Shown here: positions 13,640 to 58,151 of the stretch, piece by piece
Layout of the letters: the number at the start of each line of letters is the position of its first letter
Position numbering within the stretch: the first letter of the stretch is position 1
IMG/VR virus record: IMGVR_UViG_3300045988_171858
Direction: 5' to 3' (one strand)
Length of the DNA stretch: 64,000 nt
DNA from: a virus
The notes under the pieces: generated by a model
The model's database searches: none
What the model was told of the DNA's origin: nothing
What the model saw: the letters and a program-made list of their open reading frames with translations, nothing else
Position numbers and translations under genes: made by a program

Positions 13640-13640
13640 G

Positions 13641-29361: not shown

Positions 29362-29362
29362 A

Positions 29363-39131: not shown

Positions 39132-40406
39132 TTATCTTGTAGAGATTGTTACATCTCTAAGCCCATTAAAATCACGAACAACATCAATATCAGCAGTCTT
39201 AATGTAAAATGGGCCAAACCGTATAGTTGTTTTATTGATCTTGACGCCAGGGCTAACTTCCGGTTCAAAGTCGGCCATAGTGATGAACACTTTCGTGCCC
39301 TCATCGTCATCAGATCTATTGTCCCTAATTTTGTTCAGAACGGTTCTAAACTTAATAGGAGACGGAATCCCAGTCATATTGACTGTAATTTCTTCGAAGA
39401 CGGACGCAGCCTCGTCATCGGGGCTAGAAGTATCAACAGTTAAATCCAAAACAGAATTTATAATACAGTCAATACCAGTGCCTCTATAACTAGGCTTAGC
39501 TGTAATAAAGCACTGCAGATACTTCCCTACAGCAAACAGCTCTTTATTAGGCTCATAGACGTTGGAGAATGCAGTTAAGGCATAATCCCTGCCATGTATA
39601 TCCTTAGCTTCAATAAAGGCCATAGGCTTACCATTTTTAGTGGTAATAACCCTAACCTTAGAAACCTGACATACAGTGGCTCCATGATAACCTCCGGCTT
39701 CAGCGACTTCACGTTCAATAAAAGCAGAATCATGATGCACATCCTTAACACCCTTGGTAATAACATCCATAGGGTTACCTGAAATGTATACACCAATCAA
39801 TTCTTTTTCTGATTCCAGGATTTCAAGAAGCGTAAATTCCTTAAACAATGGGTCAACGAAATACGTATGCTCCAGCTTGCAGAATTCCTTGATTCTCTCT
39901 TCAGCTTCAGTAGTTAAGCCTTTAGCTGCCCTGCATTCCTTCTTCAATCTGCCCTTAGGGTCAAAATCAAGAATGAACTTAGAGTACGAACGAATAAGTA
40001 CACTTCGTTTATATCCAAAAGAATCGACCGCGCCGGAAAGGATTAAACTATCACAAACCTTCTTATTGATATTAGTAGTCAACAAATAAGTTCTAAGAAG
40101 AAAATCCCCAAAACTACTATAAGGTCTAAGTTCAATCAATTTACTAACAGCACCATCACCAATCCCACGAATACCAGACAAACCATAAATAATATCATTG
40201 TTACGATTAAGACCAAAAGTACCAACAGATTCATTCAGGTCGGGCGGCAAGATATTAATACCTTTAGAAACAGCATCTTCCATATAGGTTTTCTTCATAG
40301 GAGGATCAGTTTCACAAGTAATAATAGAGCAATAAAACTCTTCCGGATAATTGGCTTTAAGCCATGCAGTGTAGTAAGTCAAATGACCATAGGAGTACGC
40401 ATGCGA
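39132..40406 (-). CDS. dnaE: DNA polymerase III alpha-type polymerase, C-gene, last exon
   Basis: Begins SHAYSYGHLTYYTAWLKANYPEEF (DnaE 'KSHa.aYa...AyLKahYP.eF' motif), then an OB-fold-like C-terminus. The TTG 'start' in the ORF track is the intron 3' end. Confidence 0.85.
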   Translation of the reverse strand, partial: SHAYSYGHLTYYTAWLKANYPEEFYCSIITCETDPPMKKTYMEDAVSKGINILPPDLNESVGTFGLNRNNDIIYGLSGIRGIGDGAVSKLIELRPYSSFGDFLLRTYLLTTNINKKVCDSLILSGAVDSFGYKRSVLIRSYSKFILDFDPKGRLKKECRAAKGLTTEAEERIKEFCKLEHTYFVDPLFKEFTLLEILESEKELIGVYISGNPMDVITKGVKDVHHDSAFIEREVAEAGGYHGATVCQVSKVRVITTKNGKPMAFIEAKDIHGRDYALTAFSNVYEPNKELFAVGKYLQCFITAKPSYRGTGIDCIINSVLDLTVDTSSPDDEAASVFEEITVNMTGIPSPIKFRTVLNKIRDNRSDDDEGTKVFITMADFEPEVSPGVKINKTTIRFGPFYIKTADIDVVRDFNGLRDVTISTR

Positions 40407-40675
40407 CAATTGTTACCCTAGAGGCTTTTTATCCTCTAGCTCTATGGATACTTTACACTCTCCATAGTTCGGCATATATTTTCTTCCCATAGGGAAGGCG
40501 GACACTCTTGGGCGGATTATATTCTCTAACGAGTTTCACCGCCTATGCTCTACAATGGTTTAAGATGTTAACCTTAAACTTATCTCGGTATTAGGAACAC
40601 AAGGCAAATCCTTTCACCGATTTTGCCCACTGATAATCTAATATATTACTATACTAGACGCCTCGCATTATTCAA
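40407..40675 (-). mobile_element. group I intron i7 (family 2, ~269 nt) in dnaE
   Basis: P AAAUCGGUGAAAGG, Q CUAAUACCGAGAU, R GUAGAGCAUAGG, S GAAAAUAUAUGCCGAAC, 3' end GGGUAACAAUUG|UCG. P1 pairs AUGCU (exon) with GGCGU. Coordinates +/-2. Confidence 0.7.
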
Positions 40676-40683
40676 AGCATTAA
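40676..40683 (-). CDS. dnaE: dnaE mini-exon (~8 nt, UUAAUGCU)
   Basis: With the last nt of the previous exon it encodes F-N-A, restoring ARYA-FNA-SHAYSYG (compare AGYGFNKSH). A 5-nt version is also in frame. Confidence 0.5.
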
Positions 40684-40980
40684 CAAATATGTTCAACCTC
40701 ATTCGCAAGTTGAGGTCCGTTATTAATAACTGCTCTATGTTTCCATAGAAGTTCAGACTATATCATATCCTCCGGCATTATCCGGTAAGGCACCAATAAG
40801 GTGTCTACATAGAGGAATAAATCCACTGTAGAATTCCCATTTTCAGACATCATAAGCTTATGCCTTACGCTTTTCAGCTAGTCGTTGAACCTGTCCGTAG
40901 ACGTGGCTGCTGATTCCCTAAACGGGTTCCAGCAATTAACGGGATTATCATTTGTATATTTCTATACAAAGGCGCCAATG
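40684..40980 (-). mobile_element. group I intron i6 (family 1, ~297 nt) in dnaE
   Basis: Closely resembles the nrdA intron: UUUGUAUAGAAAUAUACAA, P UUAAUUGCUGGAAC, Q GGAAUCAGCAGCC, R GGUUCAACGACUAGCU, S GAUAUGAUAUAGUCUGAAC, 3' end GAACAUAUUUG|. P1 pairs GCGU with GCGC. Confidence 0.75.
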
Positions 40981-41107
40981 ACGCATACCTCGCAAACTCC
41001 AGGAGCTCTTCCCAGAATTGCGCTACTTCTTGTTTATCTTCACCATTGGCCACTGCACCATTGATGAAGTCCTCTCTGAGTGATGCCAGTTTGGCTGCAT
41101 CTTTTTT
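40981..41107 (-). CDS. dnaE: dnaE C-gene exon (KKDAAKLASLREDFINGAVANGEDKQEVAQFWEELLEFARYA)
   Basis: Matches the DnaE 'gKKk...m...F..Ga..nG......if..i..FagY' region. Confidence 0.8.
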
Positions 41108-41351
41108 CAATTATGTTATCCCGCCGGCTTTTTATCCGGCAGTTCTTATACTCCATATTCGTATAAGTTCGGCGTACATTTTCATCCCATTGGGATGTCG
41201 AACACTCTTGGAGATATTATATCTTTTCAATCTCTACGCTCTACGGTGGTTTACAGTTCCTGTAAACTTACCTCGGTATTAGCATCTCAGCCTTCACCGA
41301 TTTTGCTCGATACACACTGCATCATTACTGAAGCAGGGGGCAATTAAAATT
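41108..41351 (-). mobile_element. group I intron i5 (family 2, 244 nt) in dnaE
   Basis: 5' splice site GGU|AAUUUU, P AAAUCGGUGAAGG, Q CUAAUACCGAGG, R GUAGAGCGUAGAG, S GAAAAUGUACGCCGAAC, 3' end GGGAUAACAUAAUUG|AAA. Confidence 0.75.
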
Positions 41352-41422
41352 ACCAACAGCCTTTCTTAAAACATCAGCTTTAATATCAGAGAAGCCGCAC
41401 ATTTCTTTTGATAATCGGAGGA
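41352..41422 (-). CDS. dnaE: dnaE C-gene exon (..LRLSKEMCGFSDIKADVLRKAVG)
   Basis: Matches the DnaE '..aGfs..eaD.lRrAmgKK' region. In frame only when joined to the flanking exons. Confidence 0.75.
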
Positions 41423-41700
41423 CAATTTGTTATCCCAAAGGCTTTTTATCCTTTGGCTCTATATCTACTTTTGCTCTCGATATAGTTCGGCATACATTTT
41501 CACCATATTGAAAATCAACTTAGGTGCCGGCCACTCGTGGAATCATTATATTCTCCATTGGAGTTTCAGATTCTATGCTCTACGATGCTCCGCGTCATTT
41601 AAATGCGAAGTTATCTCGGTATTAGGATAAAAGCAAAATCCCTTCACCGATATTGGCCAGTAATAATAAAAAGTATTTCTACTTTAAACGTCCCTCTTAG
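41423..41700 (-). mobile_element. group I intron i4 (family 2, ~278 nt) in dnaE
   Basis: P AAUAUCGGUGAAGGG, Q CUAAUACCGAGAU, R GUAGAGCAUAGAA, S GAAAAUGUAUGCCGAAC, 3' end GGGAUAACAAAUUG|. The 5' boundary is uncertain by a few nt. Confidence 0.7.
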
Positions 41701-41839
41701 AACCTTCCTGAAAAATCAATTCGTTATGTGCGTTACTAAAAATGTGGTCATACTTAGGAAATCTAAATTTCGTTGGAGGAAGCTCTCCTGAAATCTTTCC
41801 TATAATTCGTTGTACCAATCCGGGGATATTAAGCGGTCC
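41701..41839 (-). CDS. dnaE: dnaE C-gene exon (GPLNIPGLVQRIIGK...NELIFQEG)
   Basis: Continues YRP|GP.. and ends at the conserved (Y/F)QE motif. Confidence 0.75.
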
Positions 41840-42091
41840 CAGAAATGCAATACAACGGTATCTGGTATTTCTATCAGGATTGGACTATCTCATCACCATA
41901 TCAAATGACTTAGGTGTCGGGCGCTGTATCTGGTAATTAAGAACACTATAGTTCTCCAGTAGTCTCTGCACCTTCTTATGGTGTACCATAAGCTTGGCTC
42001 AGGATTGCCTTATCTTAAATTAAGACTTAGGTTTCCCTGAGTTCACCCGATTTTAACCTAACTGTTTCCAATTAGGGCCCCAGACCGCTTT
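41840..42091 (-). mobile_element. group I intron i3 (family 1-like, 252 nt) in dnaE
   Basis: 5' splice site CCU|AAAGCGG with P1 GCCCU/GGGGC, R GUGCAGAGACUACUGG, S GAUGAGAUAGUCCAAUCC, terminal G before GGACCG. Confidence 0.75.
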
Positions 42092-42338
42092 AGGGCGATA
42101 TGTACTAACAATTACTGCAATATCATGAATCGTTTTGGGTTTACAGGCATTAACAAATCCAGACATACCTGCCTCTTCAAATTGAAAGATACCATAGTTC
42201 CTTTCATTCCAAAGAACCTTATACGCTGCCTCGTTGTCCATTGGTAAATTATACCAATCAATATCAATGCCGTGACGCTTCTTAATCAGCTCTCTTGCAA
42301 AGTTAAGAACTGTAAGCGTCTTTAACCCAAGGATGTCT
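42092..42338 (-). CDS. dnaE: dnaE C-gene exon (DILGLKTLTV...GIFQFEEAGMSGF...VSTYRP)
   Basis: Contains the DnaE motifs 'KmDfLGLk.L' (completed across the splice junction) and 'GvFQlES.gm'. The frame was checked against ORF 42053..42241. Confidence 0.85.
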
Positions 42339-42606
42339 CAAAATTTTGTATAATCAATACAAGGGTGGGCTTTTTATCCCAACCGTCCAGACTTCTTTTT
42401 AATCTGGTTTGGCATACTTTTTCAACCGTTCTGGTTGCACCGGCCTCGTGGGGATATTATATTCTATTTAAATAGGTTCAATCCCTATGCTCTGCGCCTG
42501 ACTAAATTTTTAAATCTAGCCTTCGGTCTCGAGTTAGCATCACAGCCTTCTCGCTTAATTCCGGTGTGATAATCCATAATGTTCCCACTATGGACGCCAG
42601 ATATCT
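42339..42606 (-). mobile_element. group I intron i2 (family 2, 268 nt) in dnaE
   Basis: Close relative of the recA intron: GGAAUUAAGCGAGAA, CGAGACCGAAGG, R GCAGAGCAUAGGG, S GAAAAAGUAUGCCAAAC, 3' end ACAAAAUUUUG|AGAC. Splicing gives VK-L-DILGLK. Confidence 0.8.
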
Positions 42607-43547
42607 AGCTTCACGACATTTGACGTTTCTTCAATCTTATTGCCCTCCCATTGAATAGCAGGGGAGCCCTTACTATCCCAGAGTGGCACATCTTCCCATA
42701 GAGGACGGTCAGACAATGCAACGCCACAGTTATGAACAACTACGCCATTAGCAATATAAGAAGAGTCATCTAATACGGTAAAGTTATATACATCAACCTC
42801 TGAGTCAAGATCTTTAGCAAAGGCTTTGGATACATCAAGAACTTTTCTTGCATATCTTAAATCTTCCTTGTCGTTGATGCCTATCACACCATACCCTGCA
42901 ACAATAGACTTTGCCTCTGACCATATCAATTGCCCTTTAAATTCGCCATTACCTTGCGGTTCAATTGGATCAATGAGCCCAATCGGGTGATTCGAGGTAC
43001 AAACAAAATGGTTAAAATCGTCATACTTAGAACATTGGTAAGATATGTGCAAAAGGTCTTCTTTTCGGACCTTGTTGACTTGAATCTCAACTACCTCTTT
43101 CCATCTTAACATATGGGTTAAGGCATAATATCCAGGCTTAACATCCTGAATATTCATAAGTCGAGGGGCATCATTTTCAGATGTTTTTATATAAACCTTT
43201 GTATCTGCTATGAAACAGGCATGAAGACCAGTGGCCGCCAAACAGTCACTAAGACTAATTGCATCATCCCAGACCTCTTTTACTTCAGGGTCTGAGTCAT
43301 ATAATGCCTTAATGGAATCGTCCTCTTTAAGCAATACATCAAGTGGAGGGCAATCAAGCTCCGGCATCATGCCGGATATCTTATTGGCCTTTTCAAAGCC
43401 CATACCATGAATACGTGCAGCGTCTTTAAAGGCCTTTTTGCCGCCGGTGTATGTTAAGGTGCCCAAATGAGCAAATCCATCACCATACTTCTCCTTGAGC
43501 ATTTCGAAAACTTCAGGCCGACGTTCTTTCTCTACGTCGGAATCAAT
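42607..43547 (-). CDS. dnaE: dnaE C-gene exon with in-frame mini-intein
   Basis: IDSDVEKERRPEVFEMLKEKYGDGFAHLGTLTYTGGKKAFKDAARIHG..., then ..TGLHA[intein]CGVALSDRPLWEDVPL. Confidence 0.85.
42729..43217 (-). mobile_element. mini-intein (163 aa) in dnaE C-gene
   Basis: HA|CFIADTKVYI... (block A), ...VYNFTVLDDSSYIANGVVVHN|CG (blocks F/G). Interrupts the conserved 'HAaGvvi' motif. Confidence 0.85.
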
Positions 43548-43800
43548 CGTTTATGTTCAGTATAGGTCGTTAATCTATACCCGGTACAAAACCAGCTCTA
43601 TGTCGCCATAGAGACCAGACTATCTCATCACCATGTCCATGAGGATTTAGGTGCTCTGCGCTTCGAACCACTTGGCCCTACATAATAGTCGTTACACGTC
43701 CTTCGCTTTCGCAAAGTTTCGCACGGTATTGTCTTCTAGAGAGTTTCACCGTTTTCACAGAGTTTTCTGTTGTCAATTTCTTGACAAAGGGACTATTTTA
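43548..43800 (-). mobile_element. group I intron i1 (family 1-like, 253 nt) in dnaE
   Basis: 5' splice site GGAU|UAAAAUAGUCC (P1 GGAU/GUCC), R GUGUAACGACUAUUAUG, S GAUGAGAUAGUCUGGUC, 3' end GAACAUAAACG|AUU. Splicing gives GGGFPD|IDSDVE (the PDxDxD catalytic motif). Confidence 0.8.
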
Positions 43801-44061
43801 ATCCGGGAAGCCGCCACCAACAGTATGAACCTTACCGGTCGGCGGGGTTGTTACGATTCCGAGTAGATAAGCAATAGAAGAATTAGCCTCATTATCCTCA
43901 ATATTTCTAACACTCGCATTATACAGATTCAAATAATACGAATCGATATGATGCAATTCACAATGATTCAATTCGAACATAATATTTGCTTTATGCTCTT
44001 TGAACCAATCGGTATCAGAATAAGAAAGAACTAACTCTCTTAAGTTTTTATGCTCAGCCAT
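43801..44061 (-). CDS. dnaE: dnaE C-gene exon 1 (divergent duplicate of the palm segment)
   Basis: The likely start is the ATG at 44061, which overlaps the upstream stop (AAATGGCTGA). It ends ...SSIAYLLGIVTTPPTGKVHTVGGGFPD. The ORF track opens at 44145. Confidence 0.6.
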
Positions 44062-45121
44062 TTTCTTTGCCCATGTAATATGCCAATGGTTGAACCATAT
44101 AGGCGATTCTATCCTCAATACTTGATTCTTTTGGAAGCAAATCAATAATCAGGGCCTTCATTTGACCTTTGATTTCCGCAGAATGAGGTTTAGTACAATC
44201 AAAAGCAACCGGTTCCGCCGACACAAGTGGGATCACCTTGTCACCAAATTTAACATAGCTTCCATCTTGAACTGGACTGACCGGAACAAACAGGCGAATA
44301 CGTCTGGTGTCAAAGTTAATTGTGTCAGTATGCTCAGAGACTACACAGTCTTCAAATTCCTCAACTTCAACGCCGGCAACAATATAATCGTTATCTTTGT
44401 TGTATTGTTCAATCTGCAATTCAAGTCCGACCATAGTAAGATGGGCTAATGGAGTTCTGTGTGCCTTAGGATTAACAAGGCCCGCGGCATACAAGAAATT
44501 AGTATTCCAAACACCAGAAAGTTTATCCATACTATTAGGATACATACCGATAGTTTCTACGATAGTATCTAACAGTCCAGTATTCTTAAACAATTTGAAA
44601 TCGGGAATACGGATATGCCCAGAATCACAACTATCCGCATAAATGAAGCTACCTTCAATTACTTCTGTATAGCTCATAGTTGGCTTCAAGAAGCTTGAAT
44701 TATAGCTCCTATCAGGAGGACAAGTAACAATAAAGGCATAAATACCAGCGCCGCCAAGATGTTCAAAATCAGTACCGCGATTGATTTCAAAACAGAGTTC
44801 AGTCGCTTTCGACTCATAGTGTTCCCCATTGTATTTTAAAGAAGATTGGAACAAAGGAATCAGAAAGCTCAGGGTGCCGGGAGGTTCATACCCATAAGGA
44901 TGACCTTTCAGTTCCCCGGACTTACCAGGAATCCAAATGCCGCATAAGGCATTCAAGCCCTCTTCGCAGACTTCATAGCCTTCGGCAAGCTCTTGGGCAA
45001 TCTTCATGCCGAAATCACCGGGCTTTTCATTCACATTGCCGAAATAACCATAGCGCCCAAGATTCGAATATTTGATATCCGCGTAAACGCCTCTAAGCAT
45101 GTATATAGGTGAGTCTTTCAT
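44054..45121 (-). CDS. hypothetical protein (355 aa), last gene of the dnaE-splitting cassette
   Basis: ORF only, with no motif I can name. Translationally coupled to the dnaE C-gene. Confidence 0.75.
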   Translation of the reverse strand: MKDSPIYMLRGVYADIKYSNLGRYGYFGNVNEKPGDFGMKIAQELAEGYEVCEEGLNALCGIWIPGKSGELKGHPYGYEPPGTLSFLIPLFQSSLKYNGEHYESKATELCFEINRGTDFEHLGGAGIYAFIVTCPPDRSYNSSFLKPTMSYTEVIEGSFIYADSCDSGHIRIPDFKLFKNTGLLDTIVETIGMYPNSMDKLSGVWNTNFLYAAGLVNPKAHRTPLAHLTMVGLELQIEQYNKDNDYIVAGVEVEEFEDCVVSEHTDTINFDTRRIRLFVPVSPVQDGSYVKFGDKVIPLVSAEPVAFDCTKPHSAEIKGQMKALIIDLLPKESSIEDRIAYMVQPLAYYMGKENG

Positions 45122-45136
45122 TTTCTAATTCCTTTA

Positions 45137-45811
45137 TCATTCGGCTAAACCCGCTTTTGCCAGGCCATAAAATACGCCAGTATCGCCATTCCAACTTTGG
45201 AATTTTTCGGCAATAACATGAAGCTCAGTAATGTCCATAGTTAACAATGGGAACTCCTCAAAGAAGCTCTTAGTAGATAGGCCACCATAGCCAACCATAA
45301 TGCCGCCGGGACGAAGAAGTTTTTCATAGACCTGGGTAGAATAAATATTCGTAGGGTCAAGAGCAAGTTCATCAGTCAAATCACAAACAATTAGGTCATA
45401 AGTCTCAGATTGTTCGTTATGCTCAGCCAAGAAGGTTTGAATGTCTTTCTCTACGATAGTTAAAAATGCCTTGCCGGTCATGGCTGCATATTGCTTTTTA
45501 AATTGGTTAGCAGCAGCAGTATGATGAGGCTTAAACTTGGTAAAGTATTCCGTAATGCCTGGGTCCACAATTGTAATGCGGTTATCATAGGACAGGAATG
45601 TACATTCGCTGATTAACTGGAAATCACCACCGCCAATAACAAGGATATTGTTCCATTCTTCCGGAGCCTTATTATCAGGGAACATTCTTTGGTATACTTT
45701 ATGGAACATTCGGGGATATTTGAAATAATCCCGGCCAGTTGCCCATTGGATCAAACCGTCAATGTAATAACCAAACGACCCGCCCGGGCCCTTTTTAAAC
45801 TCAAGCTCCAT
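45137..45811 (-). CDS. spermidine-synthase-like (class I SAM-binding fold) transferase
   Basis: ILVIGGGDFQLISE (compare SpeE GGGDGG), ITIVDPG, and YDLIVCDLTDELALDP (compare SpeE D-x-x-D-P), then L..GGIMV. Confidence 0.55.
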   Translation of the reverse strand: MELEFKKGPGGSFGYYIDGLIQWATGRDYFKYPRMFHKVYQRMFPDNKAPEEWNNILVIGGGDFQLISECTFLSYDNRITIVDPGITEYFTKFKPHHTAAANQFKKQYAAMTGKAFLTIVEKDIQTFLAEHNEQSETYDLIVCDLTDELALDPTNIYSTQVYEKLLRPGGIMVGYGGLSTKSFFEEFPLLTMDITELHVIAEKFQSWNGDTGVFYGLAKAGLAE

Positions 45812-46394
45812 ATCTTCTTACCTCATCAAAAACAAAACAGTTATCCTTGTCGATATCTGTAACATTATACTTCTTAATAACATCTTCCTTAGTAGGGAAG
45901 TCCCTCGTTTCACCATAAAGAATACGATACTCTTCAGCAATCATGCTCTCTTTTAAGCAAGGAACGACGGATTGGGCAGTAGAAACGATAAGTGGAGTCC
46001 ATGTGTTTACTTCACACGCATCGAATTCATCTTGGATTAAACAAGCCCGAATGCAAATTGCCTTGATAGCTTTAAGGATAGACATTTTGCATGAGCGAGG
46101 ATGGAGAAATATAGTACCGCCAATAATAGAATTTGTTCGGTCTAAGTCCTGACAGAAAAAGCCAACATCTTTTTGTCCGTTGTTGACGACATATAGGTCT
46201 TGCGGCGCCTTTGGATAGATGTACCGTTTAAACCAGTCAAAGTTATAACACTTATGCAGCTCTTCCTCACGGATACCAAACTCCTTCAACCAGTCCTCAA
46301 ATGTCCCGCTATAATCATTGATAACCCAGTCTTTATTGGAACATTCCACAAGCCATTCAAAATCGGCTTCTGTTGCTTTTCGTACTAAAACCAT
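45801..46394 (-). CDS. hypothetical protein (197 aa), weak GNAT-like N-terminus
   Basis: VRKATEADFEWL resembles GNAT starts, but no clear acetyl-CoA motif is present. Overlaps both neighbours. Confidence 0.6.
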   Translation of the reverse strand: MVLVRKATEADFEWLVECSNKDWVINDYSGTFEDWLKEFGIREEELHKCYNFDWFKRYIYPKAPQDLYVVNNGQKDVGFFCQDLDRTNSIIGGTIFLHPRSCKMSILKAIKAICIRACLIQDEFDACEVNTWTPLIVSTAQSVVPCLKESMIAEEYRILYGETRDFPTKEDVIKKYNVTDIDKDNCFVFDEVRRYGA

Positions 46395-47518
46395 CAGTCT
46401 TCTCTCTCAACTTCTTCCTGCTCAATAGCTATTTTTAATAGCTCATCAACTTTAGGATAAAAATAATCAATTATCTCAGACAGATTATCAGCCTGAGAAT
46501 TTACGGCAACGATTGTAGAGTACATAGGTTTTACTACAAAATCTTGCCATGAATCAGATAGCCAATACAGATCGTTTTCAACACCTGCCTGTCTATACTG
46601 TATATTCTTAACTGGACAATGGGTTAAGTCTTTCTCGTTTTGTTCAACTATAGGAAAAGACTCATTGTCAGATTTTAGGTTATTCTTATTGAAGAATTGA
46701 ATAACCTTTGGAGAATAGAACATCTCTTCTTCGTTTGCTGCATGATCACGGCACATATAAATGTTACCGCGCGGCGAAATAGCCCTTACGTTCTTTGAGC
46801 ATAAATCCTTATCGCCTTGATGATACCAAGATGCAGCCAATAGCTCTTTCGCTACAAACAGAGACTTATCTTCTCCGGAAATATAAATATCCCTAGAAAT
46901 CTCCATAATGCCTTTAAATAAAGCACCAAAGAAATCTCTAGGGATGATAACAGCTTTGTCTGTTCTATATATTGTTACCGGCTCGTAACTAAACGTATCG
47001 ACACCAAGCGTCGAGAAGAATTTGTAATTATCAAACATATTCTCAAATTTAGCCCGACCATACAGAACAGAACTCAAAGTAATATCAAGCTCATCTGATT
47101 TTCGCATTGCTCTAATATTATTCAGAACAGCTTCAAACTGAGCCTGACTTTCAAAACGTTGCTTATTCTCTTCAAAAGTAGAACCATCAAGAGAAATAAG
47201 AACTTCATCTAAAATATAAGACAGAGAAAGGACTTCTTCCTCCGTCCAGTCTTTAAATAATCCATTAGTGTACAATCTGGTACGAATGCCCATATCAAGA
47301 GAACTGCAAAAATCAATAATGTCAAACAGTTCTTTTTTATGGAGGGTAGGCTCACCGCCGTAAAACTCGACGATGGAACCTACCTTAGCATACTTCCTAA
47401 TGAAGTCTTTAATTTGATTTAAATCAGCCAATACTGGAGATTCATTCTTAGACTGTATACAGCAATAAGAACAATCCAAATCGCAATGATTACTGAACAC
47501 AACACTAAGAATATACAT
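46394..47518 (-). CDS. radical SAM enzyme (374 aa)
   Basis: CDLDCSYC (Cx3Cx2C) at aa 12-19, GGEPTL, and three further C-terminal Cys (possible auxiliary cluster). Confidence 0.85.
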   Translation of the reverse strand: MYILSVVFSNHCDLDCSYCCIQSKNESPVLADLNQIKDFIRKYAKVGSIVEFYGGEPTLHKKELFDIIDFCSSLDMGIRTRLYTNGLFKDWTEEEVLSLSYILDEVLISLDGSTFEENKQRFESQAQFEAVLNNIRAMRKSDELDITLSSVLYGRAKFENMFDNYKFFSTLGVDTFSYEPVTIYRTDKAVIIPRDFFGALFKGIMEISRDIYISGEDKSLFVAKELLAASWYHQGDKDLCSKNVRAISPRGNIYMCRDHAANEEEMFYSPKVIQFFNKNNLKSDNESFPIVEQNEKDLTHCPVKNIQYRQAGVENDLYWLSDSWQDFVVKPMYSTIVAVNSQADNLSEIIDYFYPKVDELLKIAIEQEEVERED

Positions 47519-47520
47519 CT

Positions 47521-48120
47521 TTAGTCCTTCACTGGGTTGTCTCTAAAATAAGCTTGCACTTGAGATGGAATTGCTTTACGGGCAGAATCATCCTCGTCGA
47601 AGAAGCCCATGATATAGTCATTGTAACCAAATCTGGTTTTGTAGACTTTGATCTTTTCGTAAAGCTCTTTTGTATATAACCACAACCAATCGGTTTCATA
47701 GTCAAATGCAAATTGGAATTTCAGATATTTAAAATCAGATTCCTGAATTCCATCAAGGGCAGTATAGCACTGATAGAGGTGGTCTACAAATTCGCGTAAA
47801 CCTCGAATATCAAGGCTTGCCAAATCTGCATCAGTACGAGGAAGTGCATACTTCTCACAATAGAAGCGGGAGAAACGTAACAATGGGTACTGTTCCGATT
47901 CCTTCTCAACTACTTCTAGTTCGGCATCAATAATACCCTTCAGAGTGTTATAGGCATAGAGAGAGTAATCATCATCCTCGATATTAGAGGCGAAATAGAA
48001 AATCTTTTCCGCCCGTTCCAATGAACCCTTTTCGGAAGCTTCAAGAACTTCCAGAGCCTTTTCATAGTTACCCTCGGCAACCGTCATCGTATTGTTGATT
48101 TCAAAAAAGCTAAGGGCCAT
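47521..48120 (-). CDS. hypothetical protein (199 aa)
   Basis: ORF with a 1-nt overlap to the upstream small ORF and a 2-nt gap to the radical SAM gene. Confidence 0.7.
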   Translation of the reverse strand: MALSFFEINNTMTVAEGNYEKALEVLEASEKGSLERAEKIFYFASNIEDDDYSLYAYNTLKGIIDAELEVVEKESEQYPLLRFSRFYCEKYALPRTDADLASLDIRGLREFVDHLYQCYTALDGIQESDFKYLKFQFAFDYETDWLWLYTKELYEKIKVYKTRFGYNDYIMGFFDEDDSARKAIPSQVQAYFRDNPVKD

Positions 48121-48332
48121 CAGCAGCCACCTCCAACATTATCTTGGTGTGTATGTGTATGAATCATCAGTGCCTCAATAACACGACGCATATCGTTAAT
48201 ATCTCGAACACTAATATCATCTTCTGTAGTTACCCGTCTAGAGACACCATTTCCAAACGGGAGTGCTTCTTGTCCTGAGCCATTAGTCCATTGCGGAACT
48301 GAAAAGCCCGTAGGAGAACTGGTTTCTGGCAT
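48120..48332 (-). CDS. small protein/peptide (70 aa) ending HTHTHQDNVGGGC
   Basis: ATG preceded by GAAAGGA. Coupled to the downstream genes. Single Cys at the C-terminus. Confidence 0.6.
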   Translation of the reverse strand: MPETSSPTGFSVPQWTNGSGQEALPFGNGVSRRVTTEDDISVRDINDMRRVIEALMIHTHTHQDNVGGGC

Positions 48333-48393
48333 AAGAAATCCTTTCTTGTAGAAAAATATATCTGTTGCTACAGATACATTCTACATCAGATCC

Positions 48394-48879
48394 TTACTCT
48401 TTACTACCTTCAATTCGTATATAGGAAGCGTTTGACACAATCATGAAGTGCAGAATTGTTGCAAGCTCAAGTAGTGTGTCATCCTGATGCATATACCAAA
48501 TAGGCCCTGCATTCAGGCGATCGTCAATGATCAAAGAATCCAAACGTTTCTCGCCGTCTTCCATTTCGAGGATTCGCGCCAATAGGCCATAAACGTTGGT
48601 AACTTCATCAAGACCCATACGGCCGTCTTTACGATGCGAGAAATAGACTACAGGATTTACGCATTCCGGCACGCAACTCAAAAGCAAATCGTCTTCATTG
48701 CAAGAGATGTGCAATGTGTCCATGAAGGACATCCAATTGTGGTCAAAACCGGACTTGACAACTTCCTTGAGGAATTCATATTTCTCTTTTACCGGCAAAT
48801 TGGTATAAGTAGAATAGCATGCAAAATTTGCGTTATTCAGTTTTGGGAGTAGTTCGTTTTGAAGGTATGGTAAAGACAT
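48394..48879 (-). CDS. hypothetical protein (161 aa)
   Basis: ORF starting 4 nt after the dnaE N-gene stop. Confidence 0.7.
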   Translation of the reverse strand: MSLPYLQNELLPKLNNANFACYSTYTNLPVKEKYEFLKEVVKSGFDHNWMSFMDTLHISCNEDDLLLSCVPECVNPVVYFSHRKDGRMGLDEVTNVYGLLARILEMEDGEKRLDSLIIDDRLNAGPIWYMHQDDTLLELATILHFMIVSNASYIRIEGSKE

Positions 48880-48882
48880 TTT

Positions 48883-50697
48883 TTATTTTCTTTCTGTAGT
48901 AAGCCACTCTTTTAACGGGTAGCCTTTAATTTCGATAACCGGCAATTTTGCGCGTCCGGCATTAAGGTAACGGCTGAACATTAGCCCGTATGGGATAGGA
49001 TCAATAGCGGTAATACCTAAAGCATAGGAGAGCAATGAGCCCGCGGCGCTATTGTGAACCATACAAACATTAGTCCTAAAAGAACAATCCTCGTCAACCA
49101 TAAGGTCATATACCCTTACCGGTTCATCTTCATTATAGAAGCTAGACAACTCAAAATTGTCTATTGAATCCATTTTGTAATCTTCAACCTTAGACAAAAT
49201 ATCGTCAGGTAAAGTTCCCCTATCTAGTGTGTGTATTTGCTTGTCCAATTCGATAGCGGGAATGAATCCATGTTTTTTAGTTTTAACTTTATGGTCTTCT
49301 GTTAAATGCATCATACCATATTCAGTTTCAAGGGTAATCATTTCCCTATAATCTACAATATGTTTGGTAGTATGATACACAGACTTCCATCGGTTATTAT
49401 GGGTCCAAACCATATCTCCGACTTTGACAAATTCAATCGGACAATAATAAATGGCGCCGGCCCTATTGATTAGAGCCTTAGTCCCCTCAAATAGACACCC
49501 ACGACCAGGACCAATCATAATACCTTTAGCTTTAGCCTCATCAAGAATCTCTTGCAAGACCAAAGGATAAGAACTGAAACCCATCTTAGAGTACATATCA
49601 AGCTCTTCTTCAAGTCTATCGAAATAAACCTTCTTCTGTTCGTCAGAAAGCTTTTTAGAATATTCAGAATACCATTGCATGGCTCTGCCTCTCAATACAG
49701 AGTCAGGGTCAGCATAAGGAGCAGGGAAGATAATATCCTCATTCTTAGGCAAGGTTACATTACACATCTCTGCAATTTTATTTGTATTTGCAAAAGCCTC
49801 TGCATCTTCAGGATGAGAGTAATACTCTTCAACCAATACATGATGCGGCTTAACATAATACTGGCTAGGCTGATAGAACATAGAGTTGCTATCAACGTCG
49901 GCATCTTCTTTGCTCGAGTCAGTCAGGCCGGCAGCTTTTACCGCCTTATTGATTTGACCGCCAGTATTAACCATAACTAATTTAGCATGGCTATCAGATT
50001 GCCAAGGATATACATAGTGGCTATCACATGTGATAACCATAGGAATATTATGCTTCTTGGAGATTTCAACCAAATTCTTATTGGCAATATCCTGCTCTTC
50101 AAGGCCGGTATAAGTTTTCTCCAAATAGAATCTGTCACCAAAAATCTCCTTCAGCTTTAATGCAATCTGTTCGGCTTCTTCCGGTTTGCCATCCAAATAC
50201 AGCTGGTTAATAGGTCCGCCCAAACAAGCAGACGTACAAATCAAGCCTTCATTGCACTCTTCAAGAAGAGCTAAATCAAAACGCGGCTTATAGTATTTGT
50301 AACGAGTCCAGGCAATAGAGGTAGCTTTCATAAGGTTACGATAGCCCTGCTCATTAATAGCGATAAGCAGAATATGATAGTTAGCTTTATAGCCTTCTAT
50401 CTTTTCCTTAATAGAGCCAGAATGAAGAGTCATGTATCCTTCATTAGCAAAAATTGGCTTAATACCATGCTTAGCGCAAATTTTAGCTTGCTCATGATGG
50501 CCAATCATATTGCCATGTTCAGACAAACACAAACCCTTCATTCCAAGAGCCTTAACACGTTCACAATACTCTTCAAGCTTACCAAATCCATCCAAAGGAC
50601 TATAGATACTATGAGCATGCAGATTCGTATACATCCCGACATCTTCGGGTTTAATATCGCCATTTGGATTTTCGGGAGTGGACACAAATTCCATCAA
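48883..50697 (-). CDS. dnaE: DNA polymerase III alpha-type polymerase, N-gene (PHP domain plus start of palm) with mini-intein
   Basis: PHP motif NLHAHSIYSPLDGFG, then ...GPGRG[intein]SAAGSLLSYALGITAIDP..FSRYLNAGR. It continues into a degenerate LPVIEIK in place of PDxDxDF and stops. Confidence 0.85.
   Translation of the reverse strand: MMEFVSTPENPNGDIKPEDVGMYTNLHAHSIYSPLDGFGKLEEYCERVKALGMKGLCLSEHGNMIGHHEQAKICAKHGIKPIFANEGYMTLHSGSIKEKIEGYKANYHILLIAINEQGYRNLMKATSIAWTRYKYYKPRFDLALLEECNEGLICTSACLGGPINQLYLDGKPEEAEQIALKLKEIFGDRFYLEKTYTGLEEQDIANKNLVEISKKHNIPMVITCDSHYVYPWQSDSHAKLVMVNTGGQINKAVKAAGLTDSSKEDADVDSNSMFYQPSQYYVKPHHVLVEEYYSHPEDAEAFANTNKIAEMCNVTLPKNEDIIFPAPYADPDSVLRGRAMQWYSEYSKKLSDEQKKVYFDRLEEELDMYSKMGFSSYPLVLQEILDEAKAKGIMIGPGRGCLFEGTKALINRAGAIYYCPIEFVKVGDMVWTHNNRWKSVYHTTKHIVDYREMITLETEYGMMHLTEDHKVKTKKHGFIPAIELDKQIHTLDRGTLPDDILSKVEDYKMDSIDNFELSSFYNEDEPVRVYDLMVDEDCSFRTNVCMVHNSAAGSLLSYALGITAIDPIPYGLMFSRYLNAGRAKLPVIEIKGYPLKEWLTTERK
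49051..49497 (-). mobile_element. mini-intein (149 aa) in dnaE N-gene
   Basis: GPGRG|CLFEGTKALI.., block B LTEDHKV, and blocks F/G VYDLMVDEDCSFRTNVCMVHN|SAAGS. Confidence 0.85.
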
Positions 50698-50719: not shown

Positions 50720-51265
50720 TTACTTAATACACTTAGTTAAATCCGGCGCCCAATAATGAGGGCCTTTGATAACCTTTCCGAGTTCATTTTTAACAGCCTT
50801 GCCATCAACAAATTTAGACATATTAGAAGCATGAACTTCATCAAATCCAGCTTCAAGATCCAAACCAAATGTAATGGCAGCACCAGTATTAACATAGTCG
50901 ATATCAACAATAGCATCATAGACGCCAATCAAATCAATATCGAGATCTTTATCTTTCAATTCATGAGAAACATCTTTCAGTTTCTTCAGGCCGACATTTA
51001 AAGTGTCCAGGACATCTTTTGCTTTATTATTATTTTCAGCTTCATTAGACAAAATAGCTTCGGCCATTTCGATGGTTTCTTCGAGAGTCAATTGTACACG
51101 AAGGAGAGAATCGGCGGAAGAAGGAATGGTAGCCTTCTCATTAACGGTTTGGCCAGCAATAGTCATAAACCGTTTTACCTTTTCCGTGTGACTCTTAACA
51201 CCAAAGAATTTTGCAAGTTTGCACATCATAAAATTACCGGTCATCCATACTTGATAAAAAAACAT
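50720..51265 (-). CDS. MazG-like nucleoside triphosphate pyrophosphohydrolase
   Basis: Helical EExxE-type segment LTLEETIEMAEA, then VYDAIVDIDYV and HASNMSKF, as in phage MazG/NTP-PPase proteins. Confidence 0.55.
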   Translation of the reverse strand: MFFYQVWMTGNFMMCKLAKFFGVKSHTEKVKRFMTIAGQTVNEKATIPSSADSLLRVQLTLEETIEMAEAILSNEAENNNKAKDVLDTLNVGLKKLKDVSHELKDKDLDIDLIGVYDAIVDIDYVNTGAAITFGLDLEAGFDEVHASNMSKFVDGKAVKNELGKVIKGPHYWAPDLTKCIK

Positions 51266-51702
51266 TAGTATCCATCCTCAACAGTTCCGGGCGCACCGAC
51301 TACTTGAATACCATCATCGTCATGCCCTGCATTGTTAACAAGTTCCTGAAGTTTATCCAATTCAGAAGGATTAGCTTCATAATAAGACTTAAGACCAGTC
51401 TTGCCTTGGAATTTAAGAACTTCACCATCAGGAGTACAATAAGGTAATGTATACCAAGCGCCGCCCTTTTCAAAAACATCTTTAGCAATAGCAGCATCAA
51501 TAAGTTCTTCAACCCTATTGAAACCTACACCAAAATAAAGGTTAGATTCACCAACACCAAAAGGACTACCGACTTTATTCTTAATTATAGTAAAGTCCAC
51601 GGTTTGGCCAATGAATCCATCACCGGCTGAATTCTTGATTCTCATTGATGGAGTCGAATTGACTTTGACACGGCTTGAGCAATAGAAGGGAATGGCTTTT
51701 CC
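51265..51702 (-). CDS. recA: RecA/UvsX-type recombinase, exon 2
   Basis: Begins GKAIPFYCSSRVKV (compare RecA GGnALKFYaSvRldiR). Confidence 0.85.
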   Translation of the reverse strand, partial: GKAIPFYCSSRVKVNSTPSMRIKNSAGDGFIGQTVDFTIIKNKVGSPFGVGESNLYFGVGFNRVEELIDAAIAKDVFEKGGAWYTLPYCTPDGEVLKFQGKTGLKSYYEANPSELDKLQELVNNAGHDDDGIQVVGAPGTVEDGY

Positions 51703-51997
51703 CATTTTGTTATCGCAGAGCTTTTTATCTCTGCTTCTGCATCATTACAATGCAGTTCAGCATACTTTTTCACCATATCCAAAGGACTTAGGTGTAGCGG
51801 CCTCGTGGAAGCATTATATTCTATTATTAGTTTCAGCTTCTATGCGTTGCCCCTGACTGGGCCGTTAGACCAGCCTTCGGTTCGAGTTGTCCTATCTAAG
51901 AGGGAGGATTTTCTCGCTTAATTCCGCTATTATAATTCATAACGTTTCCGCTATGAACGGCAGATATAATCACTTAAGTAGTTGATTTATATACATT
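51703..51997 (-). mobile_element. group I intron (family 2, 295 nt, no ORF) in recA
   Basis: 5' splice site GGU|AAUGUA, GGAAUUAAGCGAGAA, CUCGAACCGAAGG, R GCAACGCAUAGAAG, S GAAAAAGUAUGCUGAAC, 3' end GAUAACAAAAUG|GGA. Splicing gives QTTPG|GKAIPFY. Confidence 0.85.
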
Positions 51998-52654
51998 ACC
52001 TGGAGTGGTTTGCCCACCCCAAAGGTCCATCTTGTCCCTCACCTGATTCACAAAGATCAGAGTGGTATTAGCTTTCTTCAGAGACTCTAAAAGCTTTGGC
52101 AGGGCCTTGGACAAGAATCGGGCTTTCTCGGCCATCGTCTCTTTATCATAATCGCCATTTAATTCACGTTTAGTCATCAGCGCTGGAACGCTATCAACAA
52201 TAACTAAACTAAAGGCGCCGGTAGCGACCGCGCCATCAATAACTTCGAAAACATTTTCAGCTTCTTGCATCTGAAGGAACACAACGCCTTCGTCATTTTC
52301 GCAGTCAAGGCCAAGCTTTCGCATATAGTTGAAGTTTTGTGCCTGTTCGGCGTCAACGTACAAGATATATTTGTCGGGATATTGTCGACGTGCATTTGCA
52401 CAAGTCAAAGATACAATGGTAGATTTGCCAGAACCGGATGCCCCAAAGATCTCGTGAATACGACCTCTGACCCATCCTCCATTGCCAAGAAGACCATCAA
52501 GAATAGCAGAGCCAGAAGAAATAGACTCAAAAACCTGATACTCCCCATTGGAGAAGATATCGCCACCTTCACCGTATTTCTTATTCATTGCTGTCTTAAA
52601 GCTGGTCATTGCCCTTTTAACGTCGGGCGAAACGTTCATTTCTATTTTAGACAC
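51998..52654 (-). CDS. recA: RecA/UvsX-type recombinase, exon 1
   Basis: Walker A GASGSGKST and Walker B LVIVDSV. Ends ..WGGQTTPG. Confidence 0.9.
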
Positions 52655-56612: not shown

Positions 56613-58151
56613 TTATTCCTGACGGTCAATATAAAGGGCATCCAAGAAATCTTTCTCAAAAGAGAATACCGAAGCAGTATGTTTTTTAGTGCCATTGGAG
56701 AATTCTTTAACAAGGCCGACGGACAAATGGACTTTGCCGCCTTCCTCGTAAACATTTGTAGTCCACATTTTGTAACCGGAAGGATTGTCCGCAATAAACA
56801 TTTCAGCAAATTTGTCTATCGCCGCATATAGCTCTTGATCTTCATCATCACTATCACGCCCGTAAGGCCATCGGTAATTGATTGGAAGATTTTTAGCCAT
56901 AATGCAGATATCTTTATAGCTCAATCCGGTTGGGTCAAAGATATCCTTGTCCATTTTTAAATCCAATTCACCGGCAACCAATTTATCCCAAAGCTTACAC
57001 TTATCGTCAAAATAGGAATGCAAAATGATATCTGGATTGAACAATACCGAAATGTCACTATTAATACGAATTGCGTAGTCAATGATGCCCTTTTCGGAAG
57101 GCGTATATTCACGGCGTTCTTTGACAATGTCAAGACATTTTTTACGACTCTTAGAATCAACCTTCGAGTAATGGCGGGCAGTGAAATCAAAGACTTTACG
57201 CTTGCCAAGGGTAGAATACTCAAATTTAGAGTCATCAGCTTTGGGATAGAAGTATTGCGTCTTTTTATAATTCAAGTAGAGGCCGCCCTTGTTTAAGGCT
57301 TTTTCAAATTCAGCATAAATAGCCTTAATATCATGTTCCCTGCCGGCAAGAATTAAATCATCCACATATACATAAACCCGCGAAGATGTAACACCCGCCA
57401 TAGCCTTATCAAAGTGATGAAAGATCGTATTGTACAAATGGTAATTCGCCAACTCATTCGCATATCTCGCACCAGTAGGAACGGCACCATTGTGAAAGAG
57501 GCAACTCAAAAATGCCCACAATCCAATTTCAAGGCGCTCAAACTTTTTGTGGTCTTCCAGTTCGAATTTGCATTCGCTGAACAACGGAAGATTTTTAATC
57601 AAAAATGTTTTAGGTGCAAGCTGCATTACCTTTTCAAATCTTACAGATTTAAAGAAGGCAGAAATATCCGACTTAATAACCATTTCATTGTAATTATTAG
57701 TCGCTACATGATTTGTATTGTGGATATTGTGCATAAACCGTAAATTTGGAGTCATCCAACGTAAGGTATTCCGAATACGATTATGAGCCCGTTTAATATT
57801 CTCACAATCATCTTCAGAAATCTTTTTGTTGATATAACAAACCTCACGGCCTTTATCTGTCACAAAATTACGGAAAAGAAGAGTGTTATTGCAATTACCG
57901 ACAAAGTCAGCAAGAGTTTTAACCATTCTTGAGTATTCCTCAAAATCCGGAGTCAACAAGCCATTTACACCATTAAGGGATTCGATTGCCTTCAGGACAT
58001 CTTCCTTAGGTGTCTTGTTAAAAAGTTTCTCCGGGAATGTGGAATCAATATCGCATTCACCATCTTCAATTTTTTTGATGATGTCTAAAAATGTTTGGGC
58101 CAAATAAACAATTGGCGTAATGAACTCTAAATGAATATCTACTGCGTCCAT
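56613..58151 (-). CDS. reverse transcriptase (512 aa, unclassified lineage)
   Basis: RT motifs A (IKSDISAFFKSV), B (GAVPTGARYANELAN), C (VYVYVDDLILAG) and E (LYLNYKKTQ). Confidence 0.85.
   Translation of the reverse strand: MDAVDIHLEFITPIVYLAQTFLDIIKKIEDGECDIDSTFPEKLFNKTPKEDVLKAIESLNGVNGLLTPDFEEYSRMVKTLADFVGNCNNTLLFRNFVTDKGREVCYINKKISEDDCENIKRAHNRIRNTLRWMTPNLRFMHNIHNTNHVATNNYNEMVIKSDISAFFKSVRFEKVMQLAPKTFLIKNLPLFSECKFELEDHKKFERLEIGLWAFLSCLFHNGAVPTGARYANELANYHLYNTIFHHFDKAMAGVTSSRVYVYVDDLILAGREHDIKAIYAEFEKALNKGGLYLNYKKTQYFYPKADDSKFEYSTLGKRKVFDFTARHYSKVDSKSRKKCLDIVKERREYTPSEKGIIDYAIRINSDISVLFNPDIILHSYFDDKCKLWDKLVAGELDLKMDKDIFDPTGLSYKDICIMAKNLPINYRWPYGRDSDDEDQELYAAIDKFAEMFIADNPSGYKMWTTNVYEEGGKVHLSVGLVKEFSNGTKKHTASVFSFEKDFLDALYIDRQE

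Follow-up and report, generated by a model that had tools for sequence, protein, structure and literature searches.

A radical SAM gene cassette between the two halves of a phage dnaE gene and its possible role in the modification of a small conserved protein

CteB, the thioether synthase of the SCIFF peptides (six Cys in forty-five residues), reportedly links Cys to Thr. In its structure, which we take as a model here, the Cys of the substrate binds an incompletely ligated auxiliary cluster. Another radical S-adenosylmethionine (SAM) enzyme of the SPASM type, QhpD, installs Cys thioethers in QhpC, a small subunit of quinohemoprotein amine dehydrogenase. In the microcin C pathway MccD and MccE, with a GNAT domain, transfer a SAM-derived aminopropyl group to a ribosomal peptide, the target being a phosphoramidate on a heptapeptide. 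PapB joins Cys to the carbon next to a carboxylate (PMC12373016). At the genomic level, 'fractured genes' have been described, in which a homing endonuclease gene is located between the halves of a split intein (Dassa et al. 2009, PMC2677866). The locus analysed here resembles each of these systems in part. It is a seven-gene cassette lying between the two halves of the replicative DNA polymerase gene dnaE in the viral sequence IMGVR_UViG_3300045988_171858, the whole 64,000-nt stretch of which is called the window below. The genes are designated c1 to c7 in transcription order, and relatives are designated by L-numbers (genomes, contigs or loci) and P-numbers (individual proteins). The favoured reading, held with somewhat less than even confidence, is that the cassette carries out a radical-SAM-centred post-translational modification of the small protein c2, a functional component of the replication module that travels with the split DnaE.

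An earlier note, made from the letters of the window without database searches, had described seven coupled open reading frames (ORFs) inserted inside dnaE, and their positions, overlaps, motifs and flanks were all confirmed. All seven are on the minus strand, with dnaE ORFs at 48883-50697 on one side and 42588-43502 on the other. Genes c2 and c3 overlap by 1 nt, as do c4 and c5, while c5 and c6 overlap by 11 nt; the stop codon of c7 shares nucleotides with the ATG of the dnaE piece that follows (ATGGCTGA). The same set of genes, in unchanged order, is present between the dnaE halves of 11 IMG/VR genomes (80-188 kb), and the cassette occupies this place in more distant contigs too. The ratio of nonsynonymous to synonymous substitutions (dN/dS, Nei-Gojobori), calculated against those IMG/VR relatives, is 0.04 for c2, 0.06-0.08 for c4 and 0.03-0.08 for c5. 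The ORFs are genuine and under purifying selection, which is strong for the 70-aa ORF c2 on which the earlier note had relied, and their conservation is well beyond chance. The lineage that carries the cassette comprises uncultured phages of ~180 kb. No close relative of the window was found among 50,697 GenBank phage records (megablast of the cassette, tblastn of c4 and c6), where the only matches to the cassette were Salmonella speE contaminants.

A scan for promoters and terminators revealed no internal signal above chance in the cassette, and its genes therefore appear to be co-transcribed with dnaE. The 61-nt spacer between c1 and c2 contains an inverted repeat, ATCTGT-AGCA-ACAGAT, followed by a run of T (window 48340-48390), just upstream of the ribosome-binding site of c2. 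This repeat could uncouple the expression of c2 from the remaining operon.

The radical SAM enzyme is encoded by c4 (46394-47518, minus strand; 374 aa). It matches the Pfam Radical_SAM family with an E-value of 3e-15 and has a CX3CX2C core, and the motifs CDLDCSYCC and GGEPTL were verified. The C-terminal part contains a CX10GX4C motif, one further Cys and a CRDHAANEE motif; residues C240, C256 and C301, as well as CRDHAANEE, are invariant in 16 divergent family members. In a comparison of the c4 family profile with the PDB the best match was CteB (5wgg, E-value 7e-19), over residues 6-274 and including the first SPASM motif, with which the CX10GX4C of c4 aligns. The matches after CteB have E-values of 1e-10 or worse, and viperins, YydG and SkfB are far behind. 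The second SPASM block, CX2CX5CX3C, is missing from c4, suggesting that the auxiliary domain is twitch-like. Like CteB and PapB, c4 would have an auxiliary cluster short of protein Cys ligands and a partner peptide with a near-terminal Cys, the tail of which is Thr-rich in some lineages. Unlike them, c4 has neither the second half of SPASM nor an N-terminal RiPP recognition element (RRE; RiPP, ribosomally synthesised and post-translationally modified peptide); the protein starts at the radical SAM core, and residues 1-100 of CteB have no counterpart. Its scores are also far below the curated NCBIfam cut-offs for maturases, namely 41.3 bits against 340 for PapB, 43.1 against 625 for StsB and 39.5 against 349 for anaerobic sulfatase maturase. 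The cassette differs further from the CteB and PapB systems in its location in a phage replication operon.

The profile comparisons thus support the assignment of c4 as a radical SAM enzyme of the peptide-maturase type, with CteB as the nearest solved relative, in line with the earlier note. That note had also considered a grouping with housekeeping enzymes such as the anaerobic ribonucleotide reductase (RNR) activase or QueE, and such a grouping was not observed: c4 scored 36.4 bits against a cut-off of 131 for NrdG2 and 38.9 against 284 for MoaA, QueE and Elp3 were absent from the best 25 of the 59 NCBIfam matches, and no Elp3 or QueE chain occurred among the 19 PDB matches with E-values of 1e-3 or lower. 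In 5.8 billion proteins the c4 family forms 54 clusters, and its members on large contigs occur on contigs of 150-220 kb. In 185,579 GTDB species genomes only generic radical SAM cores were found, mostly archaeal and with 21-34% identity, and no closer cellular relative of c4 was present among them. The alignments of 76 of the 80 cellular matches end by about residue 190, and two longer weak ones reach residues 241 and 277.

The small protein c2 (48120-48332, minus strand; 70 aa) ends in IHTHTHQDNVGGGC and is put forward here as the substrate on which the radical SAM enzyme acts. Its gene has the sequence AAAGGA 8 nt upstream of the ATG. The protein consists of an MPxT..P N-terminus, W..G and (R/K)RV motifs, an amphipathic helix DIN.LR..IE.L, an HxH.[YH].D motif and a flexible Gly/Ser/Thr tail with a terminal Cys. 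The members of the family share D.I...DIN.LR..IE.L..H.H.Y.D, followed by 3-12 Gly/Ser/Thr-rich residues leading to Cys or Cys-Gly. Conservation extends from end to end, the N-terminus included, and only the length of the tail varies. Such a fully conserved protein of 65-80 aa with fold motifs of its own differs from the SCIFF peptides. An exhaustive profile search of 1.84 billion representatives yielded a small family of about 20 proteins of 65-79 aa together with triple-repeat forms; no Pfam or PHROG match was found for c2 or the triple forms, and no PDB match for c2.

Single-module c2 is known from 22 distinct sequences, every one of them in a locus bearing a radical SAM gene, and every radical SAM locus has c2. 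The tail ends in C or CG in 21 of the 22 and in W in one. Thr-rich tails characterise four lineages (L100, L102, L103 and L183), each of which has a reduced c4-like gene and a radical SAM enzyme of ~450-500 aa with a complete SPASM motif. In the triple forms (P0087, P0091 and P0106) three modules are joined in one chain that lacks the Cys tail. They are encoded directly after dnaE-N, the N-terminal half of the polymerase gene, in L097, L098/L099 and L182, and for none of the three forms does the available flank include a radical SAM gene. The persistence of triplicated, tail-less c2 at loci without a radical SAM gene suggests that c2 has a function independent of the enzymes. Because it is conserved end to end, stays beside dnaE-N when the enzymes are absent and was then triplicated, c2 is no throw-away precursor; probably it is a small protein with a function of its own that also serves the enzymes as substrate, rather than a disposable RiPP leader-core peptide.

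Other roles for c2 were considered and rejected, the first of them as a primary reading. A ubiquitin-like or sulphur carrier protein for the ThiF- and JAB-like genes of the window would end in GG, while c2 tails end in GSC, RGC, TTTC or NNGC; there is no beta-grasp signature, and the ThiF and JAB genes are ~10 kb away. A glycyl-radical cofactor was discarded as there is no Gly after the RV motif. In L101 (10001-11329) a 442-aa protein, P0111, contains three c2-like 'IN..LR..IE.L..H.H' repeats, and its neighbours are very large unannotated genes resembling a virion structural module. Motifs consisting of a helix plus HxH occur in trimeric phage fibres, with which the setting of P0111 agrees, and P0111 hints that the c2 module may derive from a trimeric fibre-type motif.

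The product of c6 (45137-45811, minus strand; 224 aa) is aminopropyltransferase-like. It passes the Pfam threshold for Spermine_synth (PF01564; 35.8 bits, cut-off 22.9), and in a profile search of the PDB it matches spermidine synthases with an E-value of 1e-8 and aligns with the Plasmodium and Escherichia coli SpeE enzymes. The verified motifs are GGGD and DLIVCDLTD. Residues G60-G62, D63, D83, D144 and D147 are invariant in six divergent homologues, so that the GGGD loop for decarboxylated SAM and the catalytic DxxD are intact. However, only residues ~30-176 align, to SpeE residues ~51-189; the protein is shorter than the matched solved spermidine synthases (275-334 aa, the best two 282-283 aa) and scores far below the NCBIfam equivalog cut-offs (39.5 bits against 472, 34.3 against 260 and 31.2 against 249). 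By these profile criteria c6 is of the SpeE family, as the earlier note had it, but is not assigned as an orthologue of spermidine synthase. In L013 an AdoMet decarboxylase (PF02675, ESH...HTWPE; 13285-13656) is encoded two genes downstream of the SpeE-like gene. A search of the window with this enzyme (tblastn) found nothing, and c1 and c7 were rejected as hidden AdoMet decarboxylases.

Gene c5 (45801-46394, minus strand; 197 aa) encodes a protein with a predicted GNAT fold, the earlier note having recognised a GNAT-like start. Its AlphaFold2 model (pLDDT 77) gave 69 Foldseek matches in the PDB with E-values of 1e-3 or lower, headed by the GNATs SpeG, AAC(6') and RimL (E-value ~1e-4, TM-score ~0.5), and its matches in BFVD were NAT_SF proteins. 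No Pfam or NCBIfam GNAT model matched c5, and the canonical coenzyme A motif Q/R-x-x-G-x-G/A is missing. The cofactor loop is atypical, HP[RS]xC[KS][ML][SA], and C18, H98, C102 and E128 are invariant. With the SpeE-family motifs of c6, the SpeG-like fold of c5 and the AdoMet decarboxylase of L013, the set resembles the polyamine enzymes SpeD, SpeE and SpeG; it differs from them in the properties of c6 and c5 just described and in that c6 is known only alongside c2 and the radical SAM gene. Aminopropyl transfer to a ribosomal peptide and the presence of a GNAT domain would be shared with microcin C, but MccD is not of the SpeE family and the cassette has no adenylating enzyme of the MccB type.

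The last gene of the cassette, c7 (44054-45121, minus strand; 355 aa), encodes a two-part protein, the parts of which are separate genes of ~200 aa each in L010 and L016. The C-terminal half has an invariant HxD...H triad (H264, D266 and H313), and PF05118 (Asp/Asn beta-hydroxylase) weakly matches three of five c7 homologues, with a best E-value of 0.0035; c7 of the window itself gave no match to this family. These similarities weakly suggest that the C-terminal half of c7 is a putative iron- and 2-oxoglutarate-dependent cupin of the AspH type.

In a neighbour-joining tree of dnaE-N, from which L182 was left out, the cassette clade is monophyletic with L014 at its base, and the core order c2, radical SAM, GNAT, (SpeE) is retained down to 31% identity of the radical SAM protein. 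As judged from this phylogeny, a dnaE gene split around c2 and radical SAM genes is ancestral to a deep clade and is an old, stable trait. The reduced forms L097, L098, L108 and L120 are nested within complete cassettes and thus appear to be secondary losses. Occurrence of the genes is nested as well: no cupin gene is found without SpeE, no SpeE without the radical SAM, GNAT and c2 genes, and no radical SAM gene without single-module c2. The cassette is therefore not the self-contained module that the earlier note had envisaged, its content being nested and variable across the clade. The set in L013 comprises radical SAM, GNAT and SpeE genes and c2 among thymidylate synthase, dihydrofolate reductase (DHFR) and RNR genes, plus the AdoMet decarboxylase.

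Extra inserts of about 0.5 to 2 kb are present between the cassette genes of some relatives and resemble free-standing mobile ORFs. They are located at 11113-12034 and 13288-13787 in L002, at ~12377-12868 in L003 and L006-L009, and at 11907-13991 in L106. In L106 a 694-aa Cys-rich repeat ORF is inserted between c2 and c3, while another type of insert, ~490 bp, lies between c6 and c7. L016 has a thymidylate synthase gene within the cassette (8121-9032), between c2 and a c3-like gene.

In the proposed mechanism, c2 forms a short amphipathic helix with the HxH motif, probably assembled into an oligomeric (trimeric) metal-binding bundle, which would present the flexible Gly/Ser/Thr tail ending in Cys. 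The auxiliary cluster of c4, with its three protein Cys ligands, would bind the Cys of the c2 tail, as in the CteB model, and c4 would make a thioether-type cross-link within c2 or between c2 protomers. Aminopropyl from decarboxylated SAM would then be added by c6, an acyl group by c5 and a hydroxyl by c7. Most likely the radical SAM enzymes act on the c2 tail, its terminal Cys foremost, and the enzymes added later elaborate the product. The role of c2 as the substrate is suggested by gene association, and thioether chemistry by analogy with CteB; action of c5, c6 and c7 on c2 and the oligomerisation and metal binding of c2 are put forward as conjectures. The triplication of c2, its heptad-like helix and the HxH motif suggest a trimeric unit, and modification and gene fusion may be alternative means of tying three c2 modules together. 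A physical link between c2 and the polymerase is inferred from synteny. Likewise, QhpC, once modified, continues to serve in a larger enzyme as one of its subunits and is not exported, but there is no sequence kinship with the Qhp system beyond the radical SAM core, the cassette has no quinone cofactor genes, and the association of c2 with the polymerase is, as stated, one of gene position.

Modification of c2 is favoured because of the kinship of c4 with CteB, the match extending through the first SPASM motif, and the three invariant Cys residues; because single-module c2 always occurs with a radical SAM gene and its tail tracks the enzyme set; and because triplicated c2 persists without a radical SAM gene and the occurrence of the genes is nested. 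The retention of GGGD and DxxD in c6, with one relative having an AdoMet decarboxylase, the dN/dS of c2, low along its whole length, and the translational coupling of c2 and c3 also argue for it. Several observations weigh against it. Pfam, NCBIfam and PDB profile searches of c4 and c3 revealed neither an RRE nor any other domain recognisable as peptide-binding. The known acceptors of SpeE-family enzymes are small polyamines rather than proteins. In L108 and L120 c5 is the only cassette gene left between the dnaE halves, c2 and the radical SAM gene being absent, which suggests that the GNAT has another or additional target and thus a role independent of c2. The c2 protein of L100 ends in Trp rather than Cys, and in L013 the set is outside dnaE, with 4 kb separating c2 from the radical SAM gene. 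Because the contigs of L182 and L098 are short, the enzymes cannot be called absent there with full certainty. Finally, in the AlphaFold2 model of the triple c2 P0091 (pLDDT 40) only three helices are visible; the model supports a bundle neither way, and the idea of a c2 trimer gains nothing from it.

The earlier note had seen in the cassette the layout of a RiPP maturase pathway, and a classical pathway of this kind, in which a core of c2 is modified, cleaved and released as a diffusible peptide, cofactor or metabolite, would account for the arrangement in which a small ORF precedes the genes for an accessory protein and a SPASM-type radical SAM enzyme. It would also fit the conserved terminal Cys on a tail of variable length and the extra full-SPASM maturases of sister lineages. 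What stands of that layout is the auxiliary-Cys domain and the adjacent, co-inherited short gene; the RRE, the bipartite precursor and the release genes are lacking. As a classical RiPP precursor c2 is a poor candidate, since it is conserved over its whole length, N-terminus included, and its triplicated, tail-less form persists where the locus has no radical SAM gene. Neither the cassette nor its immediate surroundings revealed an RRE or a gene for a protease, an exporter or immunity in any lineage examined, and the cassette is embedded in a replication operon, where no promoter or terminator signal of its own rises above the chance level. A released RiPP product is thus rather unlikely. A little less doubtful, but still unlikely, is a role in nucleic-acid or polyamine chemistry for replication, for which the earlier note had also allowed and which now has less support: c6, with a host or phage AdoMet decarboxylase, and c5 would remodel polyamines, or c4 and c5, as a split Elp3-like pair, would hypermodify DNA with c6, c2 being an unrelated polymerase accessory. 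Elp3 has a radical SAM domain followed by an acetyltransferase domain, an order mirrored by the radical SAM and GNAT genes with their start/stop overlap, and polyamine acetyltransferases of the SpeG type are among the best structural matches of c5. The cassette is located within dnaE and near RNR, RecA and primase-helicase genes, there is a thymidylate synthase gene in or beside it in L016 and L013, and AdoMet_dc is near c6 in L013. Yet Elp3 and QueE are not among the 19 PDB matches or the best 25 of 59 NCBIfam matches of c4, which aligns best with a peptide maturase and scores far below the NrdG2 and MoaA cut-offs, and c5 has no canonical CoA-binding motif. Sister lineages have a second SPASM enzyme of the peptide type in place of SpeE, and wherever SpeE occurs, c2 and the radical SAM gene are present too. 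None of the kinase, glycosylase-like and DNA-transferase genes typical of thymidine or deazaguanine hypermodification was seen, and the thymidylate synthase of L013 is paired with DHFR, as for ordinary dTMP synthesis.

The genes might also have no common function, the gap in the split dnaE being a permissive landing site for unrelated cargo. Other cargo does occupy this site in L125 and L179, L181 has a gap there and the window a group I intron, and the content of the cassette varies, with extra ORFs inserted in relatives. This explanation is nevertheless very improbable, given that the core gene order is kept to 31% radical SAM identity, that the genes are nested in occurrence and translationally coupled, that the c2 tail co-varies with the enzyme set and that the set holds together outside dnaE in L013. 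At the other extreme, the favoured modification of c2 can be extended to a specific structure, in which c2 is a trimeric, HxH metal-binding accessory subunit of a two-piece DnaE replicase, with tails that are stapled by the radical SAM enzyme and then aminopropylated and hydroxylated, and in which c2 fusion replaces stapling where the enzymes were lost. So detailed a scheme is improbable. If it is true, neither its RiPP-type radical chemistry nor its aminopropylation of a protein by a SpeE-family enzyme would have a precedent in a viral replisome.

If c2 is the substrate, the cassette would encode a phage protein-modification pathway joining a CteB-like radical SAM enzyme with SpeE-family, GNAT-fold and cupin hydroxylase proteins, and SpeE-family chemistry would reach from free polyamines to a peptide or protein acceptor. 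Searches of the literature found no description of a radical SAM enzyme combined with an aminopropyltransferase or spermidine synthase in a RiPP or phage context, and, in keeping with the earlier note, which could match the cassette to none, no described phage system matches it in GenBank phages, family libraries or the literature searched. Within radical-SAM-dependent peptide and protein modification, the combination of enzymes and the genomic setting appear to be unprecedented, the mechanism resting on comparative genomics. The exchange between enzymes with monomeric, tailed c2 and triplicated c2 represents a natural experiment on the benefit of the modification. The parts of the cassette are small and easily expressed, and hence directly testable.

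The dnaE gene is not simply cut in two, since its halves overlap by a degenerate duplicated segment. dnaE-N (48883-50697, minus strand) encodes the PHP domain (Pfam E-value 3e-41) and the first part of the palm, up to position ~106 of the DNA_pol3_alpha profile. It keeps GRGS and FSRYLN, while the catalytic PDIDxD has degenerated to LPVIEIK, and ends 18 residues past RAKLP. A mini-intein is located at about aa 401-549 (~49051-49497); the orthologues of L010 and L011 are without aa 401-549. The C-terminal half, dnaE-C, begins with exon 1 (43801-44061, minus strand), a degenerate copy of the segment preceding the active site, which lacks GRGS and ends in ...GGGFPD. A group I intron (43548-43800, minus strand, ends approximate; Rfam RF00028, 68 bits, 43596-43810) is inserted exactly at the PD/IDxD site of dnaE-C, and exon 2 reads IDSDVEKERRPEVFEMLKEKYG. 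The rest of dnaE-C (39132-43547, minus strand) consists of the exons 42588-43547, which contains an intein, 42053-42241, 40874-41110 and 39132-40409, with further group I introns identified by Rfam at 41861-42101 and 40733-40990 on the same strand. The ORF 42588-43502, with the intein, resumes the DNA_pol3_alpha profile at ~120. In all, two inteins and no fewer than three group I introns interrupt the two halves. Compared with L001 there are ~265 extra nt between 42241 and 42588, which may be a further intron not called by Rfam.

In L015 and L016 dnaE-N spans positions ~9-104 of the Pfam profile and dnaE-C positions 69-260, an overlap of 69-104. Relative to unsplit phage DnaE, dnaE-N keeps GRGS and FERFLN but has PLIEFE in place of PDIDxD (LPVIEIK in the window), whereas dnaE-C starts by repeating the preceding ~60 residues in a degenerate form that lacks GRGS, after which PDIDTDF is intact. 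The duplicated overlap with complementary degeneration is seen at 43801-44061 and 48883-49050 of the window and in L015, L016, L097 and L108. The complementary retention of GRGS and DxD suggests that fission took place by overlapping duplication followed by complementary decay, and a complete polymerase active site presumably needs both chains. No N- or C-intein halves were found at the ends of the dnaE genes, both Pfam intein matches being internal cis-inteins. Like 'fractured genes', this is a replication gene present as two genes with foreign ORFs between them at a hot spot in the catalytic site; it differs in that the junction is a duplicated overlap with complementary degeneration without split-intein halves, and in carrying a set of enzymes as cargo instead of a homing endonuclease.

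In distant phages, with 36% or lower dnaE-N identity, DnaE is mostly unsplit. The site just before DIDxD is broken in the unrelated lineages L179, L125 and L181. L179 (11284-14559) has unrelated cargo of seven ORFs, including helicase-like and HNH genes, L125 (4448-6068) has two ORFs of 154 and 378 aa, and L181 (11113-11389) has an intron-sized gap. In L166 (11383-11413) DnaE is broken at the same pre-DIDxD position. Breaks before DIDxD in other lineages thus hold varied cargo, an intron-sized gap or nothing. Since unrelated lineages are broken here and the window has an intron at the site, it is a general and recurrent hot spot of insertion. The suggestion of the earlier note that the cassette landed in and split dnaE is plausible as ancient history; the event was not recent, and the site receives insertions generally. 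The split DnaE offers a case in which a catalytic-site hot spot for introns and homing elements gave rise to a two-gene polymerase with a stable cargo bay.

The two remaining cassette genes encode orphans. c1 (48394-48879, minus strand; 161 aa) has no match in Pfam, PHROG, NCBIfam, PADLOC or PDB and is limited to the closest subclade of the window, being present in L001-L009 and absent from L010-L016. c3 (47521-48120, minus strand; 199 aa), between c2 and the radical SAM gene, has an FxFDYETD motif and homologues in L010, L016, L106 and, weakly, L014; profile searches of Pfam, PHROGs, NCBIfam, PADLOC and PDB found no family or structural match. Elsewhere the c3 slot is occupied by unrelated-looking proteins of 180-250 aa. 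A single family for all proteins of the slot was considered, but the hhalign probability was 0.45%, and homology is not claimed.

Outside the cassette, a LAGLIDADG element (58817-59797) is inserted into a ThiF-like gene (58207-58812, upstream part near 60054-60188), which adjoins a reverse-transcriptase gene (56613-58151). The pair of ThiF and reverse-transcriptase genes recurs in L014 and L097; L016 and L100 start inside the reverse-transcriptase gene, and ThiF is therefore not visible there. A JAB-like gene is located at 61573-62058, with a group I intron just downstream (61352-61600). The RecA-like gene is present as two ORFs, 51974-52654 and 51265-51705, separated by ~270 nt that may represent another intron under the Rfam threshold. 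The RNR genes are found in 26764-31698, where a group I intron (28256-28483) divides the large-subunit gene into two ORFs and the small-subunit ORF, at 674 aa, is about twice the usual size, suggesting the presence of an intein.

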